A stretch of 64,000 nucleotides of DNA from an uncultured Alphaproteobacteria bacterium (GCA_902512325.1 CABXIT010000001.1:8207-72206); one strand, 5' to 3'. Counted from the stretch's first letter, positions 38,653 to 47,104 are shown. The notes: generated by a model from the sequence alone, not told the origin. Program-made: numbers and translations.

Positions 38653-39894
38653 ATGACACATTCGATTGAAGTAAATCAAAGAGTTTATCCGGGGATACCT
38701 TTAACAACTGCAATTGTTATTTGTTTAGATGGAAGTCAAAAAGAATATTTTGAGCAGGCATCAAAATCAAATTTAACACCCAATATTGATGCTTTAAAAA
38801 AAAATGGTGAAGACTTATTAGCAAACAGTGCAATTCCTAGTTTTACCAACCCTAATAATATTTCTATTGTAACAGGAAGACCCAGTTCTGTTCATGGTAT
38901 TTGTGGAAACTTTTTTTATACCCCTTCAACAGGCGAAGAAGTGATGATGAATGATCCTAAATTTTTAAGAGCCCCTACTATTTTTCAAAAATATTATGAG
39001 CAAGGTGCAAAAATTGCAATTGTAACAGCAAAAGATAAGCTTCGTAAGTTATTATCTCACGGTCTTAAATTTACTGACTCTCGTTCAATCTGTTTCTCTT
39101 CAGAAAAATCTGATCAAGCAACAAAAAATGAAAATGGAATAGATAATATAAATAATTGGCTTGGAATGACAGTTCCAGATGTTTATTCTCAAGATTTATC
39201 TGAGTTTGTTATGGCTGCAGGTGTCAAAATTCTTTCTGAGTTTAAACCTGATATTATGTATTTATCTACAACAGATTTTATTCAACATAAATATGCACCA
39301 GGAGATGATGAAGCAAATAGTTTTTATGCAATGTTTGATAAATATATTGGGCAATTAAATATAAATAATAACTCAATCATCATTACAGCTGATCATGGCA
39401 TGCAAGCAAAATCAAAATTCGATGGATCACCTAATGCAATTTTTCTTCAAGATATTCTTGATAAAAAATTTGGATCTCAAGTCGCAAAAGTAATCCTCCC
39501 TATTACTGATCCATATGTAGTTCACCATGGAGCTTTAGGTTCTTTTGCAACGGTTTATTTAGAAGATAAGTCAAAAATAGATGAAGTAATAAATCAAATT
39601 AAAATAATAAAAGATATTGAGGTTGTTGTGAGTAATGAAATGGGCTGCAAGGAATATGATTTACCAAAAGATAGAATGGGGGATATAATTTGTATGTCAT
39701 CCAAAAATATGACTATCGGTTCTGTTGAAAGTGCTCATGATCTTAGTAAATTGAAAGAACCTCTCCGATCTCATGGGGGCCTTCATGAAAGGGAAGTTCC
39801 ATTCATTTCTAATAAGAAAATCAATTCTATTGACACCAATATTAAACTAAATAATTATGATGCCTTTTATTACGCAATAGTAGGAGCAATGTGA
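38653..39894 (+). CDS. phnA: Phosphonoacetate hydrolase (alkaline-phosphatase superfamily)
   Basis: 413 aa. Long matches to my recollection of Pseudomonas PhnA: [64 protein letters not shown] and LRSHGG. Confidence 0.9.
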
Positions 39895-41333
39895 TGACAA
39901 ATGCAATTAAACACGAACCAATGCGTATTGCAGGTAAAAAAGTAGACGCAGAAAATAAAATCGATGTACTGTATCCTTACACAAATGAAATTATAGGTAC
40001 TGTTCCTGCCGGAACTGCTGAACATGCAAAACAAGCGCTTAACATAGCATCTAACTATCAATCAAAATTAACCAGATATGAGCGTCAGCAAATTTTACAA
40101 AAAACAGCAGAGGAACTTGTTAGAAGAAAAGACGAGATATCAGATGTTATTACATACGAATTAGGAATATCGAAGCAAGATTCACTTTATGAGGTAGGAA
40201 GAGCTTTTGATGTTTTTTCATTAACAGCCCAGCTATGTATTTTAGATGATGGTGAAATATTTTCATGTGATTTAACTCCGCACGGAAAGGCAAGAAAAAT
40301 ATTTACTATTAGAGAACCTCTCAGAGCAATATCTGCAATTACACCGTTTAATCATCCGCTCAATATGGTAGCTCATAAAATTGCTCCATCAATTGCAACT
40401 AATAATTGTACAGTTTGTAAACAAACAGAACTTACCCCTATGACAGCAATGCTTCTTGCAGATGTTTTATATGACTCAGGTTTGCCACCTGAAATGTTTT
40501 CTGTTGTTACAGGATGGCCACAAGATATTGGTTTAGAAATGATAAAAAATCCGAATATAGATTTAATTACATTTACGGGTAGTGTTGGTGTTGGAAAATA
40601 TATAGCGGAACAAGCTGGTTATAAAAGAACTGTATTGGAATTAGGCGGAAACGATCCACTTATAGTACTAAACGATTTAAGTGATGATGATTTAAAAAAA
40701 GCAGTTGAGTTAGCTGTTACTGGTGCTACAAAAAATTCGGGCCAACGATGTACTGCGGTGAAAAGAATTTTATGTCAAAATAAAATAGCTGATAAATTTG
40801 TTGCAATGGCTTTAGAGAGAGCAGAACAAATTACCTATGGTGACCCAATGGATCTCAAAATAGATCTTGGGACTGTAGTAAATAGTGAGGCAGCAGAGTT
40901 ATTTGATAAAAGAGTTTCAATGGCAGAGGAAGATGGTGCCAAAGTATTATATCATCCTGGAAGAAAAGGGGCATTACTTCCCCCTATTTTAGTAGATAAT
41001 GTAAATCCAAAGAGCGAATTAGTGCTTGAGGAAACTTTTGGTCCAGTGATACCTATTATAAGGGTACCTGATAATGATGACGAAGTTATTACTATATCAA
41101 ATTCAACAGCTTTTGGCTTATCTTCTGGAGTATGTACAAACAACTTTATTCGTGCAAAAAAATATATTCAAAACTTAAATGTAGGAACGGTAAATATATG
41201 GGAAGTCCCAGGTTACCGCATTGAAATGTCACCTTTTGGTGGAATTAAAGATTCTGGTTTAGGTTATAAAGAAGGTGTTATTGAAGCGATGAAAAGCTTT
41301 ACAAATGTAAAAACTTTTTCTTTACCTTGGTAA
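39891..41333 (+). CDS. phnY: Phosphonoacetaldehyde dehydrogenase (NAD-dependent aldehyde dehydrogenase family)
   Basis: 480 aa. ELGGNDP and catalytic Cys in [10 protein letters not shown] 4-nt overlap couples it to phnA. Confidence 0.8.
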
Positions 41334-41351
41334 TAAATTGAAAGAACTAAA

Positions 41352-42458
41352 ATGAAAAAAAATTTTAGATTTTATGATAATAGGCAAAAATACTTGTTAT
41401 TTGTTACAACAACTAATGAAAAAAATCAGATTGCTGATTTCATCCGTCCTTACGTAAATAAAATTAAACCGACAAAACCTGGTATTAAAATATTTGATGC
41501 AGGCATGGGTGACGGATCATTATTAATGAATGTAATGAGACAATGTCATGAAGCAAAACCAAATATACCTCTTCTAGTTTCTACAAAAGAAATAAGTATA
41601 GAAGATGTAAGATTTGGTTTAGAAAAATTACCAGACAGATTTGTTGAGCACAAAAATACTGTTTTTATTATATCAAACCTGCATTATGCTGAAGCAGCAA
41701 ATCTAAGATCTAATAATCATAGAAAACAGAAGAAGATTAATTGGAATATTGTTAAGCTTAAAGGAAATACCTCATTGGATTTTGCAGAACAATTAAGAAC
41801 TCAAAATTCTTTTTTAGAAAAAAAATGGAATATTGAGATTAATAAAAAAAATGGCAATCCAACTTATGAAGAACCATCTGTAATGATTATATACAGAGAA
41901 GATCAAGAGTTTAATGTGAATGAATTAATACCTACCAAAAATAATTCTACAAATAAATTTGATCTGATCATTGCCTCACAGCCTTATAGATCAAGAATTT
42001 CTGCAGAAAAAAAAGTAAAATATGTCATACACCCTATGATTGATGCCCTAAAAACTAAAGGCAAATTATTAACTATCCATGCGGCTGGGAAAGATCCAGC
42101 TAATCAAATTATAAAAAAAATCTGGCCAAAAGAAAACCCATTTCCTTCATTAAGTAATTCTATAATTCAATATTTGAAAAAAAATTTAGATAAAAATTTA
42201 TTAGCTAAAATAAATTTTAAAGATAAAGAAATTATTAAATGTAAACTTAGAGCACTACCAAATGAGCTCACTGGCAGTATCGCAACTTCTTTAATATTTT
42301 CTGCTTGGAATGCATCTATCTATGTTAATCAAATAGATGATGATAAAGTGATAAAAGTTGAAAAATCTAAAAATTATGAGAAAATTGTTAAGGAAATAAT
42401 TGCTAAAAATAAAGGTCTTTATTTTAATAATGAAATTTTCGTCATAGAAAAAAAATAA
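41352..42458 (+). CDS. Hypothetical protein, possibly a Rossmann/SAM-methyltransferase-like fold with a large insertion
   Basis: 368 aa. IKIFDAGMGDGSL resembles methyltransferase motif I, with FDLIIASQPY and GKLLTIH further on. It starts 18 nt after phnY on the same strand. The function is not recognised. Confidence 0.45.
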   Translation: MKKNFRFYDNRQKYLLFVTTTNEKNQIADFIRPYVNKIKPTKPGIKIFDAGMGDGSLLMNVMRQCHEAKPNIPLLVSTKEISIEDVRFGLEKLPDRFVEHKNTVFIISNLHYAEAANLRSNNHRKQKKINWNIVKLKGNTSLDFAEQLRTQNSFLEKKWNIEINKKNGNPTYEEPSVMIIYREDQEFNVNELIPTKNNSTNKFDLIIASQPYRSRISAEKKVKYVIHPMIDALKTKGKLLTIHAAGKDPANQIIKKIWPKENPFPSLSNSIIQYLKKNLDKNLLAKINFKDKEIIKCKLRALPNELTGSIATSLIFSAWNASIYVNQIDDDKVIKVEKSKNYEKIVKEIIAKNKGLYFNNEIFVIEKK

Positions 42459-42462
42459 ATAT

Positions 42463-43263
42463 TTATTCTTCAGTAAACCAATTAATATCAGTTTTTAAAA
42501 AATCTTCTGTGTGAATTATAAGGGATTCATCATTTATTATAGCAACATTATAATTAGGATCTGTATTTGCAGAGCCTTCACGATACTTATTAGAAAAATT
42601 TGGAATTAAGGTAGACCATGTACTTCTTGGTGAAGAAAAAGTTATGCCATCAAAAGAGCCTGAACTTGTAATATGTTGGTGACCGAAAAAAATATGTTTT
42701 ATATTTTTCTTAGAATCCAATAAAATATTTTTAAACTGATCTTTTTGTTGAAGGCCTATCCCATCACTGCTGTCTTTTACTAAAGCTATTGGGTTATGAT
42801 GCATAAAAATATAAATCTCATGACTATAAGATGTTTGACTTAAAATATTTTTAAGCCATCTTTGTCTATCTTCACAATAATGCCCTGCATGTGTATTGGC
42901 TAAATTCGTATCAATAAAAATAAAACGCTTATTTTTTAAATCTTTAAAATATTGTATAAATCCTTTTTCATCTAATTTGATTGAGGTAAAATTTTCTTTA
43001 AATATTTCACGATTATCATGATTGCCTATTATAATTTGTGGTTCTAAATTATTTGGTAAATTAAAATCATTAACAATGCTTAAAAATAATTGATACGATT
43101 CTTTATCTCCTAAGTCAGTAATATCTCCTGTAATAGTAAATAAATCTGCATCTTGGTGATGCTCTATAATATGTGCTAAAGCTTTCTTAAATCTATCTAC
43201 TGGATCAATTCCATTAATTTTGTCTGTGTAAATATGAGGGTCAGATAAATGAATTATTTTCAT
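42463..43263 (-). CDS. Calcineurin-like metallophosphoesterase (CpdA/GpdQ-type phosphodiesterase)
   Basis: 266 aa. Motifs HLSDPH, TGDITDLG, GNHDN, HHNP and GHQH. Confidence 0.85.
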   Translation of the reverse strand: MKIIHLSDPHIYTDKINGIDPVDRFKKALAHIIEHHQDADLFTITGDITDLGDKESYQLFLSIVNDFNLPNNLEPQIIIGNHDNREIFKENFTSIKLDEKGFIQYFKDLKNKRFIFIDTNLANTHAGHYCEDRQRWLKNILSQTSYSHEIYIFMHHNPIALVKDSSDGIGLQQKDQFKNILLDSKKNIKHIFFGHQHITSSGSFDGITFSSPRSTWSTLIPNFSNKYREGSANTDPNYNVAIINDESLIIHTEDFLKTDINWFTEE

Positions 43264-43290: not shown

Positions 43291-43926
43291 TTAAAAAGAA
43301 GTTTTAAAATAAATATATTTTTTAAATTCTTTTTGTAAATCAATACTCACTCTTGCATGCACCTTTCCCTGGCGACCATGAAAAGAACATTTTTCTTCAA
43401 TAGGGAAAACCCCTTCATGCCATATGTTGGGATGAATATATAATCCTTGCGAACCATCAAAATAAAAAGCTTTAAAATCACCAACTTGCACATCATCTCC
43501 TGGTAAGGCTAAAGGTGAAATAAATGGACTATTTGTTGATGGATAAAAAAGCTGTCCTCCATCAGGGTGATAATTAACATGCCAAATATAAATATTTTCT
43601 GGATGTTTATATTTTTTTATTACTTCACTATCAGGCGGTAAAGCATGACCAAGTATGTATTTTCCATCTACTTCATAGTCACTATTATGTTGAACAGCAT
43701 TATTTTGTCCGTAAAGTGTACTTCCTTCCCACCAAGCATCAAAGGATCCCTCTGTGCTCCCACCTTCATTTCCTGTTCCTTCATCAATTTCACGCCAACC
43801 TTGTTTGGGCCAAGTGACGATTTCAATATCACTATTTTCATATGAGTCGATTAAATACCCATATCCTTTAAGTGTTTCATTAGTTGCTTTAATTAAAGGA
43901 ATTTCAACCGCATCTGAACTACTCAT
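43291..43926 (-). CDS. Ureidoglycolate-lyase-fold (AllA-like) protein of unknown function
   Basis: 211 aa. TLKGYGYLID, YHPDGGQLFYP and GLYIHPNIWHEGVF parallel my recollection of the AllA motifs (F..YG.VI, HPLGTQAFIP, G.NYHRNVWHHPLF). An acidic/Trp-rich insertion of about 80 aa separates them. Its start overlaps the phnW stop (ATGA). Confidence 0.55.
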   Translation of the reverse strand: MSSSDAVEIPLIKATNETLKGYGYLIDSYENSDIEIVTWPKQGWREIDEGTGNEGGSTEGSFDAWWEGSTLYGQNNAVQHNSDYEVDGKYILGHALPPDSEVIKKYKHPENIYIWHVNYHPDGGQLFYPSTNSPFISPLALPGDDVQVGDFKAFYFDGSQGLYIHPNIWHEGVFPIEEKCSFHGRQGKVHARVSIDLQKEFKKYIYFKTSF

Positions 43927-45040: not shown

Positions 45041-46450
45041 TTATTTTTTTTCAAAATCTACCCTTCCAACTGATACAGCAATTTTGGCAAGTTGTTTATC
45101 AAACCATTTTGGATCTTTTCCCTCTTCTTGATCACTTTCTTTTCTTCTTATTGCATTTCTGATTATCATAGCGCCTAACCATCTAAATGGTTCAGGTGGA
45201 AACATTTTTAACGGCCCTTTACAAAAATTGCTTTTTGTCCATTCATTTTGTTCTTCGAGCGCCATACTACTTAATATTTCTCCACCAACGTGACACGTAA
45301 GAACGCCATTTCCTGAATAACCAAAAGCATATGAAATATTTTTATTTTTTGGATGATATCCAAAAAAAGGAAATCCAGTTTTTGTTCTCTCAGAAGGACC
45401 ATTCCAAGATGTAGTAATTTTTGCTTTTTTGAGTGAAGGATAGAAACTCACTAGTGATTTTTTTAAAAATTTTTCAATAGTACTTGGGCCATCAAATGAA
45501 TTAATAACTTTATTTCTAAAAGATAATGTATTTCCTCCTTTTCCTAAGATAATTTTTCCATCAGGAGTTGTTCTAGAATAATGAGTAAATAAATTGCAGT
45601 CTAGTATTACAAGTCCATTATTTAAACCGAGATTTTTTAATTCATTTTGCATAGGTTCTGTTATGATCATATCAGAAGAAACCAAAACTACGCTTCTTGA
45701 TAAAAAAGGTAAAAAATTTGGCGTCCATGCATTGATTGCCAACACTAATTTTTCACACGATACTGAGCCATTCTTAGTTTTTACATAAATTTCTTTTTTA
45801 TCATTATAAGAAATTACAGTACTTTTTTCAAAAATTTTGATACCATTATTTTCAGCTAATTTTTTAAGACCTCTTACAAGAACGGCTGGTTGCAAACTAC
45901 CTCCTGTTTGTGAAAAATAACCATCAATAAATTTTGAAGACTTAGTTAAATTTTGGACTTTTTCTTTTGATAATCTCTCCCAGCTATTTATGTTATGTTC
46001 ATTTAAATCACTTATAAGACTTTCAAAAGCTCCTTGATGAAATATATTTGTAGCACCGTATAAAACACCATCATCTCTTATTTCTGCATTAATCTTATTT
46101 TCAGAACAAAAATCTTTGATATGTTTCACGGCTGCTTCGGTTGACAGAACCATTTTCTTTGCATCTTCAATACCAACCACATCCCTGATTCCTTGAAATT
46201 TTGTAGACTGCGGTATCATGCAACCTCCGTTTCTTCCTGAAGCACCACTTCCACATAAATCTTTTTCAATTAAAATAATATTTAGCTGGGGCTTTTTTTC
46301 TTTAATTTTAATTGCAGTCCATAGACCTGTATACCCACCTCCAATAATACAAACGTCACAATTAAGATTTAAATTTAACTCATTAACTTTTAAATCTTTT
46401 TCTTTTTCTAAAGCCTCAATAAACCAAGGTGATTGATAGTGAAAATCCAT
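45041..46450 (-). CDS. FAD-dependent oxidoreductase (DAO/amine-oxidase type), first gene of the phnW operon
   Basis: 469 aa. N-terminal dinucleotide fold DVCIIGGGYTGLWTA. Confidence 0.85.
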   Translation of the reverse strand: MDFHYQSPWFIEALEKEKDLKVNELNLNLNCDVCIIGGGYTGLWTAIKIKEKKPQLNIILIEKDLCGSGASGRNGGCMIPQSTKFQGIRDVVGIEDAKKMVLSTEAAVKHIKDFCSENKINAEIRDDGVLYGATNIFHQGAFESLISDLNEHNINSWERLSKEKVQNLTKSSKFIDGYFSQTGGSLQPAVLVRGLKKLAENNGIKIFEKSTVISYNDKKEIYVKTKNGSVSCEKLVLAINAWTPNFLPFLSRSVVLVSSDMIITEPMQNELKNLGLNNGLVILDCNLFTHYSRTTPDGKIILGKGGNTLSFRNKVINSFDGPSTIEKFLKKSLVSFYPSLKKAKITTSWNGPSERTKTGFPFFGYHPKNKNISYAFGYSGNGVLTCHVGGEILSSMALEEQNEWTKSNFCKGPLKMFPPEPFRWLGAMIIRNAIRRKESDQEEGKDPKWFDKQLAKIAVSVGRVDFEKK

Positions 46451-46546: not shown

Positions 46547-47104
46547 ATGCCAGATAACATCGTTGATTATTTACTTGAATTATTAGAAAAAAAAGGCTCT
46601 GATATTCAATACGGCAATGAAGATGTAACCCAATTAGAACACGCCCTTCAATGTGCGGAATTAGCAGAGCAACATAATAAATCAGATGCATTTATTGCCG
46701 CAGCTTTACTTCATGATATTGGACATCTTTTATATGAAGATAAAGACCCCATTCATCAAGGAAAAGATGGTGTTCATGAAGATTTAGGCGCTGATTATTT
46801 AACAAAATATTTTGGGGAAGAAGTAACACTTCCTATTAGAGCGCATGTTGCATCAAAGCGATATCTTGCAGCAGTTGAAGACGGATATTATGATGAATTA
46901 TCAGAAGCATCAAAAAAATCTTTAAAGGTTCAAGGTGGCATTTTTTCTAAAGAAGAAGCGGAAGAATTTATTAATAAACCGCAAATGAAAGAAGCTGTAG
47001 AGATGAGACGTTTTGATGATAAGGCAAAAATATTAAATAAAAAAACACCTTCAGTTGAACATTTTCGAAAGTATGTAGAAAATTCATTCCAAGCAACGTC
47101 TTAG
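46547..47104 (+). CDS. phnZ: HD-domain phosphonate oxygenase of the PhnZ type
   Basis: 185 aa. A PhnZ-like metal ligand series: H32 (LEHALQ), H56-D57 (LLHDIGH), H77 (VHEDLG), H100 (RAHVASKRY) and D157 (RRFDDKAK). The size and context fit the phosphonate HD family. Confidence 0.75.
   Translation: MPDNIVDYLLELLEKKGSDIQYGNEDVTQLEHALQCAELAEQHNKSDAFIAAALLHDIGHLLYEDKDPIHQGKDGVHEDLGADYLTKYFGEEVTLPIRAHVASKRYLAAVEDGYYDELSEASKKSLKVQGGIFSKEEAEEFINKPQMKEAVEMRRFDDKAKILNKKTPSVEHFRKYVENSFQATS

Follow-up and report, generated by a model that had tools for sequence, protein, structure and literature searches.

Does a conserved gene at the end of a SAR11 phosphonate island encode a further enzyme of phosphonate breakdown, or does its product serve another part of metabolism? 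No heterotroph of the ocean is more abundant than SAR11, whose phosphonate island plays a central part in marine phosphorus cycling. The gene in question is an open reading frame (ORF) of 368 codons (41352-42458, plus strand, ATG start, TAA stop) on a stretch of 64,000 nucleotides from an uncultured alphaproteobacterium (GCA_902512325.1 CABXIT010000001.1:8207-72206), which was analysed as a whole and is called the window below. The ORF follows phnA and phnY, the genes for phosphonoacetate hydrolase and phosphonoacetaldehyde dehydrogenase, after 18 nt, and its stop codon lies 4 nt from a convergent metallophosphoesterase gene; these coordinates and spacers, first given in an earlier note on the window, were borne out by ORF calls and profile matches. 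The same note had called the product an unassigned methyltransferase-like protein without a place in the known PhnW/PhnY/PhnA scheme, and had considered, among other roles, that it modifies N-methylated aminophosphonates or phosphonate esters. Here we describe its predicted fold, that of a class I S-adenosylmethionine (SAM)-dependent methyltransferase, and propose, with a probability of roughly 0.45, that it is a methyltransferase that uses SAM, probably acts on a small molecule, is linked in function to the methionine/SAM methyl cycle and does not belong to the PhnA/PhnY pathway. A conserved SAR11 island gene to which no function had been assigned is now put in a very large methyltransferase-fold family, and the question becomes one of the methionine/SAM methyl cycle and no longer of phosphonate chemistry.

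The gene is real, because 3898 homologues have the same length as its product and because the ratio of nonsynonymous to synonymous substitutions (dN/dS) against close SAR11 orthologues, ~0.12-0.16, indicates purifying selection. A first AlphaFold model, with SAR11-only sequences as input, was mediocre (predicted local distance difference test, pLDDT, 74.7). A second AF2 model, with 39 sequences of 25-93% identity as input, reached high confidence (pLDDT 91.1; predicted template modelling score, pTM, 0.90) and showed a Rossmann-like core in which a seven-stranded sheet (residues 44-49, 74-79, 103-108, 203-209, 233-244, 293-299 and 357-367) is flanked by helices. When this model was compared with the PDB in Foldseek, 170 matches were obtained at E<=1e-3, and all 50 of the matches listed were class I SAM-dependent methyltransferases. 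Human histamine N-methyltransferase (HNMT) came first (E 5e-11; template modelling score ~0.6, normalised to HNMT), followed by generic small-molecule O-, N-, S- and C-methyltransferases at ~1e-7, and the first, weaker model gave the same ranking. The sheet architecture, motif I and the (predicted) SAM ribose-binding acidic residue at the end of beta2 that characterize the class I methyltransferase fold are all present. The modelled structure is therefore a class I SAM-methyltransferase fold, and the methyltransferase-like call was right at the fold level. Taken alone, this fold together with a capacity to bind SAM is very likely.

The residues expected at a SAM site are well preserved. In an alignment of the 39 sequences (A4; a second alignment, A2, was also used), residues present in at least 90% of sequences were regarded as conserved. 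The (D/E)xGxGxG pattern of motif I reads D49-A-G51-M-G53-D-G55 in our protein, and A50, G51, G53 and the acidic E80 reach this level down to 25% identity, as does N109, so that the conservation of the Gly-rich motif and of the SAM-binding acid, which the earlier note had proposed to check, holds across homologues. The three motifs quoted there, IKIFDAGMGDGSL (residues 45-57), FDLIIASQPY (203-212) and GKLLTIH (237-243), are present, and the middle of the protein is Lys/Asn-rich as described (18% Asn and 13% Lys over residues 116-202). This composition, seen in SAR11, falls within a family-specific insertion between beta3 and beta4 in which W159, G168, R182 and D184 are conserved and which probably forms a substrate-binding subdomain. 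Ten polar residues are conserved in the alignment (D9, R11, E23, K24, R96, H100, R182, D184, Y324 and Q327), and the pattern YD[LFY][IVM][ILV][AL][SV][QH]P[YWF], built on the loop after beta4, pulled out 593 relatives. The SAM site looks intact. We propose that a cytoplasmic enzyme would hold SAM through motif I and E80 at the end of beta2, with the methyl acceptor in a pocket formed by the insertion (110-202), the S209-Q-P-Y212-R loop and the helical cap at the C-terminus. R11, K24, R96, H100, R182, D184, Y324 and Q327, all conserved and polar or basic, would line this pocket. A small metabolite of polar character is the most likely acceptor, and nitrogen may be the atom that is methylated.

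HNMT (PDB 1jqd, 2aow, 2aou), the best structural match, shares with our protein a class I core with an added substrate-binding subdomain. An hhalign comparison sets residues 14-85 on HNMT residues 19-94, bringing the N-terminal helix, motif I (on the HNMT segment ILSIGGGAGEID) and the beta2 acid into register, with a probability of 24% that applies to residues 14-85 only and to a manually entered HNMT sequence. However, identity in the structural alignment is 13%, and no whole-protein sequence homology was detected. Our protein is also ~80 residues longer and has a different insertion between beta3 and beta4, and nothing points to histamine as its substrate.

The loop after beta4 allows a second comparison, with amino-methyltransferases that carry a (D/N/S)PP(Y/F) motif (RlmL/Trm14, PF01170; RsmC/PrmC-type, PF05175). 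The (S/V)-(Q/H)-P-(Y/W/F) of our protein family occupies the same post-beta4 position and suggests similar chemistry, but Gln or His replaces the first proline, no profile match of a family member comes near the gathering score (best E 0.025-0.027), and RNA- or protein-recognition domains are absent. This resemblance, with the weak PF01170 and PF05175 matches at the loop, would fit a housekeeping amino-methyltransferase that acts on a macromolecule (rRNA, tRNA, or Gln or Lys of a protein) and owes its place in the island to chance, genes being so densely packed. Coding sequence makes up 96% of the window, the median gap between same-strand genes is 4 nt and 29 of the 46 such gaps are <=18 nt, so the 18-nt gap behind phnY is not distinctive and adjacency carries little weight; short gaps in streamlined genomes are a poor guide to operon membership. 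One relative lies between leuS-lptE and holA (locus L177), and another lies near rplM-rpsI (L075). Such a role is nevertheless very unlikely in our judgement, since the best structural matches are small-molecule methyltransferases, Pfam scans found neither THUMP nor PUA nor any other domain for binding RNA or recognizing a substrate, and the family is patchy and not universal. The recurrence of MetF, MetE and MetA as neighbours, described below, would also be unexpected for an RNA or protein methyltransferase.

Curated sequence models do not recognize the protein. Searches against Pfam and NCBIfam gave nothing above cutoff, in keeping with the unassigned status reported before; the sole methyltransferase-related Pfam match was to PF01170 (E 0.18, residues 198-245), and the best curated-profile match among the 39 family members was to Methyltransf_31 (four members, E 2e-5). 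Neither the protein itself nor two profiles, used as queries, gave a meaningful match in PDB sequence searches. Because every curated sequence model fails, we place the protein in none of the named families (HNMT, MetW, MddH or RlmL-type). Its own family, for which neither Pfam nor NCBIfam has a model, counts >10,000 proteins from bacteria of the sea, fresh water and soil, and almost all of them are labelled hypothetical. An exhaustive profile search gave 945 cluster representatives at E<=0.001, and in a second search the soil/freshwater clade alone held at least 8000 proteins. Nearly all of the 120 proteins listed from this clade are unnamed or 'hypothetical', and one is called 'SAM-dependent methyltransferase'. 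Named carriers are Burkholderiales, other Betaproteobacteria, Pseudolabrys, Acidiferrobacterales and 'Ca. Zeuxoniibacter', and none of the plasmid and phage collections searched by tblastn yielded a relative. What is new is that proteins with this methyltransferase fold form a separate and very large family that has gone unannotated and is marked by its insertion and its SQPY loop; the class I kind itself is known. The protein is not surprising in kind, yet it is conserved in a biogeochemically important island.

Gene neighbourhoods outside SAR11 point to methionine synthesis. Among 80 soil-metagenome loci, which are close relatives of one another, a methylenetetrahydrofolate reductase (MTHFR)-like gene lies directly 3' of the family gene on the same strand in 56 of the 63 loci with at least 1 kb downstream, and in many loci the two tblastn matches overlap by 24-55 nt. 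Of the 33 loci that extend at least 4 kb downstream, 10 have between one and four core-MetE genes in tandem further on, within 8 kb. Genes for protocatechuate dioxygenase and for GCV_T demethylases of the LigM-like type are also close by. No homologue of any phosphonate gene of the window is present in the 80 loci. At 28% identity (L173 and L174) the family gene is followed by metF (277 bits) and a full-length metE, with metA further on, and at 29% identity (L177 and L178) it is followed by a 139-aa gene and then metA. Acidiferrobacterales (L089 and L090) carry an ATP-binding cassette (ABC) importer, core-MetE, two divergent paralogues of our protein, a convergent metF and a GCV_T-SHMT fusion, and the core-MetE of L089 is 48% identical to that of the SAR11 island. 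In L084 the order is DAO, MttB, Asp/Glu racemase and then the family gene, and in a freshwater locus (L086, 33% identity) a divergent GCV_T gene, the family gene, a small P-loop protein gene and a cytidylyltransferase-like gene stand together. The remaining contexts outside SAR11 are uninformative. Near the family, phnA and phnY were found in none of ~10 other lineages (L081-L090, L171-L179), and phnW was found in L089 only, as a bona fide copy 7 kb away. An apparent phosphonate link at L081 was rejected, since its alpha/beta hydrolase is PcaD and its Phosphodiest protein is not PhnA. The literature on the PP_4638 and ACIAD1783 neighbours offered nothing useful.

Genes of the methionine methyl branch, or tetrahydrofolate-linked methyl genes, thus recur beside the family across at least four deep lineages, whereas phosphonate genes accompany it only in SAR11 and, loosely, in L089, both of which also have the same core-MetE subfamily. 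These two observations underlie the methionine-cycle reading. Because genes of the methionine branch are normally single-copy, their repeated adjacency would be very unlikely by chance. From these family-wide neighbourhoods, the physiological partners of the protein would be MetF or MTHFR-like proteins, MetE or core-MetE, MetA and MetY, and not PhnA and PhnY. To our knowledge, the methyl donors and partners of the folate-independent core-MetE systems are still not known, and the family offers a concrete lead on the partners of MetF and core-MetE.

The same neighbourhoods could be explained by a protein that senses and does not catalyse, that is, a regulatory sensor of SAM or S-adenosylhomocysteine partnering MetF/MTHFR-like proteins and core-MetE, as a stand-alone bacterial counterpart of MetW or of the SAM-binding regulatory domain of eukaryotic MTHFR, to which a DNA-binding module may be joined in soil-clade members. 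The overlapping or abutting MTHFR-like gene in the soil loci is consistent with translational coupling, the order target-metF-metE occurs in the lineage of 28% identity, motif I is degenerate in some members (P0148 and P0158), and the large soil clade has a conserved N-terminal module and a linker. We regard a sensor of this kind as unlikely. The conservation of the SQP(Y/W/F)R loop after beta4, and of many polar residues in the insertion and the cap, is that of a true active site; the regulatory domain of eukaryotic MTHFR has a fold different from that of class I methyltransferases, and the SAR11 protein lacks the N-terminal module. In the soil clade, this module spans ~55 aa (LLDSIAEFCRxxGIAESTFGRRAVNDGKFVxRLRDG...) and is followed by a Pro/Ala-rich linker (L081 8001-9428; L091-L170). 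It has no PDB match and no significant Pfam or helix-turn-helix match (best HTH_26, E 0.17), and may be a DNA-binding or partner-binding module.

A broader proposal, to which we give a rather low probability, is that the family is the missing partner of MetF/MTHFR-like proteins and core-MetE, as a SAM-sensing subunit or a methyl-relay part of an alternative system for methionine synthesis or methyl recycling. Aerobic Proteobacteria of soils would have such a system, and so would SAR11, in which the phosphonate island of phosphorus starvation would have captured it. Other partners of folate-independent core methionine synthases have been described, for example DUF1852/MesX, and diverged MTHFR-like proteins of unknown function have also been noted (PMC7857596).

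In SAR11, the family gene is found in two settings. Scanning one genome per GTDB species, we obtained a relative in 562 genomes, of which the 80 highest-ranking were all Pelagibacterales; these are the SAR11 loci considered here. In 77 of the 80 the gene closes the phosphonate island, behind phnA-phnY, with or without a cassette in between. A phpC-type Fe-alcohol dehydrogenase gene lies directly upstream, at 3-6 nt, in ~63 loci, and phnY does so, at 18-59 nt and as in the window, in ~11. Most phpC-type loci have the order phnA, phnY, UgpB-like binding protein, a 359-aa core-MetE (PF01717 only), phpC and target; the cassette between phnY and the target (UgpB-like binding protein, core-MetE and a PhpC-type dehydrogenase of 2-hydroxyethylphosphonate, HEP) measures 3.7 kb, for example L015 4461-7998. 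'PhpC-type' is used as a label only, because the TIGR03405 score of the dehydrogenase (364 bits) is below the cutoff of 423.7 bits; PhpC homologues of catabolic clusters oxidise HEP (PMC13576164). In a neighbour-joining tree the phnY- and phpC-adjacent forms are interspersed, which suggests that the cassette was repeatedly gained or lost with the target kept. The window is in the cassette-less state, and for that reason the target abuts phnY there. The earlier description of a third gene behind phnA-phnY thus holds for the window, where the target is the last plus-strand gene, but direct adjacency to phnY is the minority arrangement in SAR11. In this clade the target is fixed as the last plus-strand gene of the island, usually just behind phpC and two genes after core-MetE.

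The second setting concerns three loci (L075, L076 and L078) in which metY, an alpha/beta hydrolase gene and the target follow one another, ctaA is convergent, and no phn gene occurs within 8 kb; in the tree these sequences are nested in the SAR11 clade. MetW is the methyltransferase-like partner of MetX (metXW). Like MetW, a methyltransferase-fold protein of methionine-biosynthesis operons, the target of L075 may keep such company, in that it follows metY and the hydrolase. However, the hydrolase is not MetX by NCBIfam, none of the 39 family members matches PF07021 at E<=1, and our protein is ~170 residues longer. The thiol S-methyltransferase MddH, a UbiE-family protein (COG2226, 24 kDa; PMC11445057), was considered for the metY context and rejected, as our protein has no Ubie_methyltran or Methyltransf_11 match and differs in size and architecture. 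A link to a SAM riboswitch was dropped; Rfam searches at the gathering threshold over the window and five loci gave no match, and a targeted scan upstream of the L075 metY found no SAM riboswitch.

The island setting raises the possibility that the protein is a true third enzyme of the phnA-phnY branch, a phosphonate-tailoring methyltransferase that methylates or otherwise alters an island substrate such as 2-aminoethylphosphonate (AEP), N-methyl-AEP, HEP, phosphonoacetate or a phosphonate ester. Its position in 77 of the 80 SAR11 loci, the PhnW of the gammaproteobacterial locus L089 together with a polyamine/AEP-type ABC transporter within 8 kb of the two paralogues, and the conserved basic residues, which would fit an anionic substrate, speak for such a role. 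So does HvrF (PDB 9e72), a methyltransferase of the phosphonate pantaphos that shares the class I fold and a phosphonate gene context and is among the structural matches (E 5e-7). Its match is, however, no better than those of dozens of generic class I methyltransferases, and HvrF is biosynthetic whereas the SAR11 island is catabolic. Co-occurrence with phnA and phnY is strong within SAR11 but is not seen outside it, in the soil loci or in the ~10 other lineages, and the metY-linked SAR11 subclade lacks phn genes altogether within 8 kb. Within the island the cassette content varies while the target stays. Catabolism of AEP or HEP to phosphonoacetate requires no methylation, and the word 'methyltransferase' is absent from three papers on phosphonate catabolic clusters (PMC13576164, PMC10590968 and PMC12366243). 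Phosphonate tailoring therefore appears improbable, and a role beside PhnW, PhnY and PhnA is unsupported, the homologues being largely unassociated with phosphonate genes outside SAR11. In the window the target probably shares a transcript with phnA-phnY. Its association with phosphonate breakdown probably reflects a neighbourhood particular to SAR11, and it would not be required for PhnW-PhnY-PhnA chemistry.

Several points weigh against the methionine-cycle methyltransferase that we favour. The predominance of the phosphonate island among the SAR11 loci and the PhnW of L089 belong here, since they leave room for a phosphonate-related role in these lineages. In several lineages the neighbourhood says little, or suggests demethylation of aromatic compounds or amines, with no lead to methionine genes. 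Because the loci are closely related within each set of 80, SAR11 and soil, the independent observations are few (~4-6 lineages). Not all family members need be catalytic, since P0148 and P0158 have a degenerate motif I. Finally, a SAM consumer beside SAM-regenerating genes is suggestive and is not a mechanism.

Features of the window in and around the ORF at 41352-42458 are collected in Table 1.

Table 1. Coordinates of genes, spacers and protein motifs in the window
Feature	Coordinates	Strand	Evidence
phnA, phosphonoacetate hydrolase	38653..39894	+	TIGR02335, 485.3 bits (cutoff 407.55)
phnY, phosphonoacetaldehyde dehydrogenase, upstream neighbour	39891..41333	+	TIGR03250, 773.7 bits (cutoff 635.65)
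Spacer between phnY and target, 18 nt; site of the 3.7-kb cassette in most SAR11 relatives	41334..41351	+	
N-terminal motif FRFYDNRQKY, residues 5-14; F7, D9, R11 and Y14 conserved (>=90%)	41364..41393	+	Alignments A4 and A2
Motif I, beta1 and Gly-rich loop, IKIFDAGMGDGSL, residues 45-57; A50, G51 and G53 near-invariant	41484..41522	+	Alignments, hhalign, model strand 44-49
K79-E80-I81-S82, end of beta2; E80 predicted SAM ribose-binding acid	41586..41597	+	K79, E80 and S82 >=90%; HNMT VEPS; model strand 74-79
Family-specific insertion between beta3 and beta4, ~93 residues (110-202)	41679..41957	+	Secondary structure, conservation, composition
beta4 and following loop, FDLIIASQPYRSR, residues 203-215; D204, A208 and S209 near-invariant	41958..41996	+	Alignments
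beta5 motif LKTKGKLLTIHA, residues 233-244; L233 and G237 invariant	42048..42083	+	Alignments, model
C-terminal helical cap, residues 249-356, between beta5/beta6 and beta7; W319, Y324 and Q327 conserved	42096..42419	+	Alignment A4, model
Convergent metallophosphoesterase	42463..43263	-	PF00149, E 3e-15; SpdA-like, 179 bits (cutoff 400)
Cupin, 211 aa, weakly ureidoglycolate-lyase-like	43291..43926	-	PF04115, E 1e-10
FAD oxidoreductase, PbfD-like	45041..46450	-	TIGR03329, 572 bits (just under cutoff, 633)
PhnZ-type HD oxygenase	46547..47104	+	TIGR03276, 207 bits (cutoff 215)

The window holds no second copy of the target and no MetE-like, MTHFR-like or MetY gene, and a scan for promoter and terminator consensus sequences around the target gave nothing above the shuffled background. 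Beyond the metallophosphoesterase lie the ureidoglycolate-lyase-like cupin, phnW, the TIGR03329 flavin adenine dinucleotide (FAD) oxidoreductase and the phnZ-type HD oxygenase, and two EamA genes flank the island. The metallophosphoesterase is only distantly SpdA-like and is variable in its presence, being missing in L001-L003, L074 and L080; in some SAR11 loci ~3-7 kb of extra genes separate it from the cupin. The cupin gene overlaps the start of phnW by 4 nt at its 3' end, lies beside phnW in nearly all SAR11 loci, and is an uncharacterised candidate enzyme of the phosphonate island. The FAD oxidoreductase was detected in L068 only among the 80 SAR11 loci. The HD oxygenase stands alone, with no PhnY*-type dioxygenase gene adjoining it in the island.

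Two further observations concern related loci. In the Acidiferrobacterales metagenome-assembled genome (L089 4482-16630) the two paralogues are placed between core-MetE and metF, and within 8 kb there is a set of ArsR, glyoxalase (ArsI-like) and low-molecular-weight phosphatase (ArsC-like) genes. In the common SAR11 form of the island (L015 12323-15587), phnZ is followed by genes for a dual-specificity-phosphatase-like protein, a polysaccharide-lyase-like protein (PF14099), a PHO4-family transporter and PhoU_div, and these four genes suggest a wider phosphorus-scavenging island.

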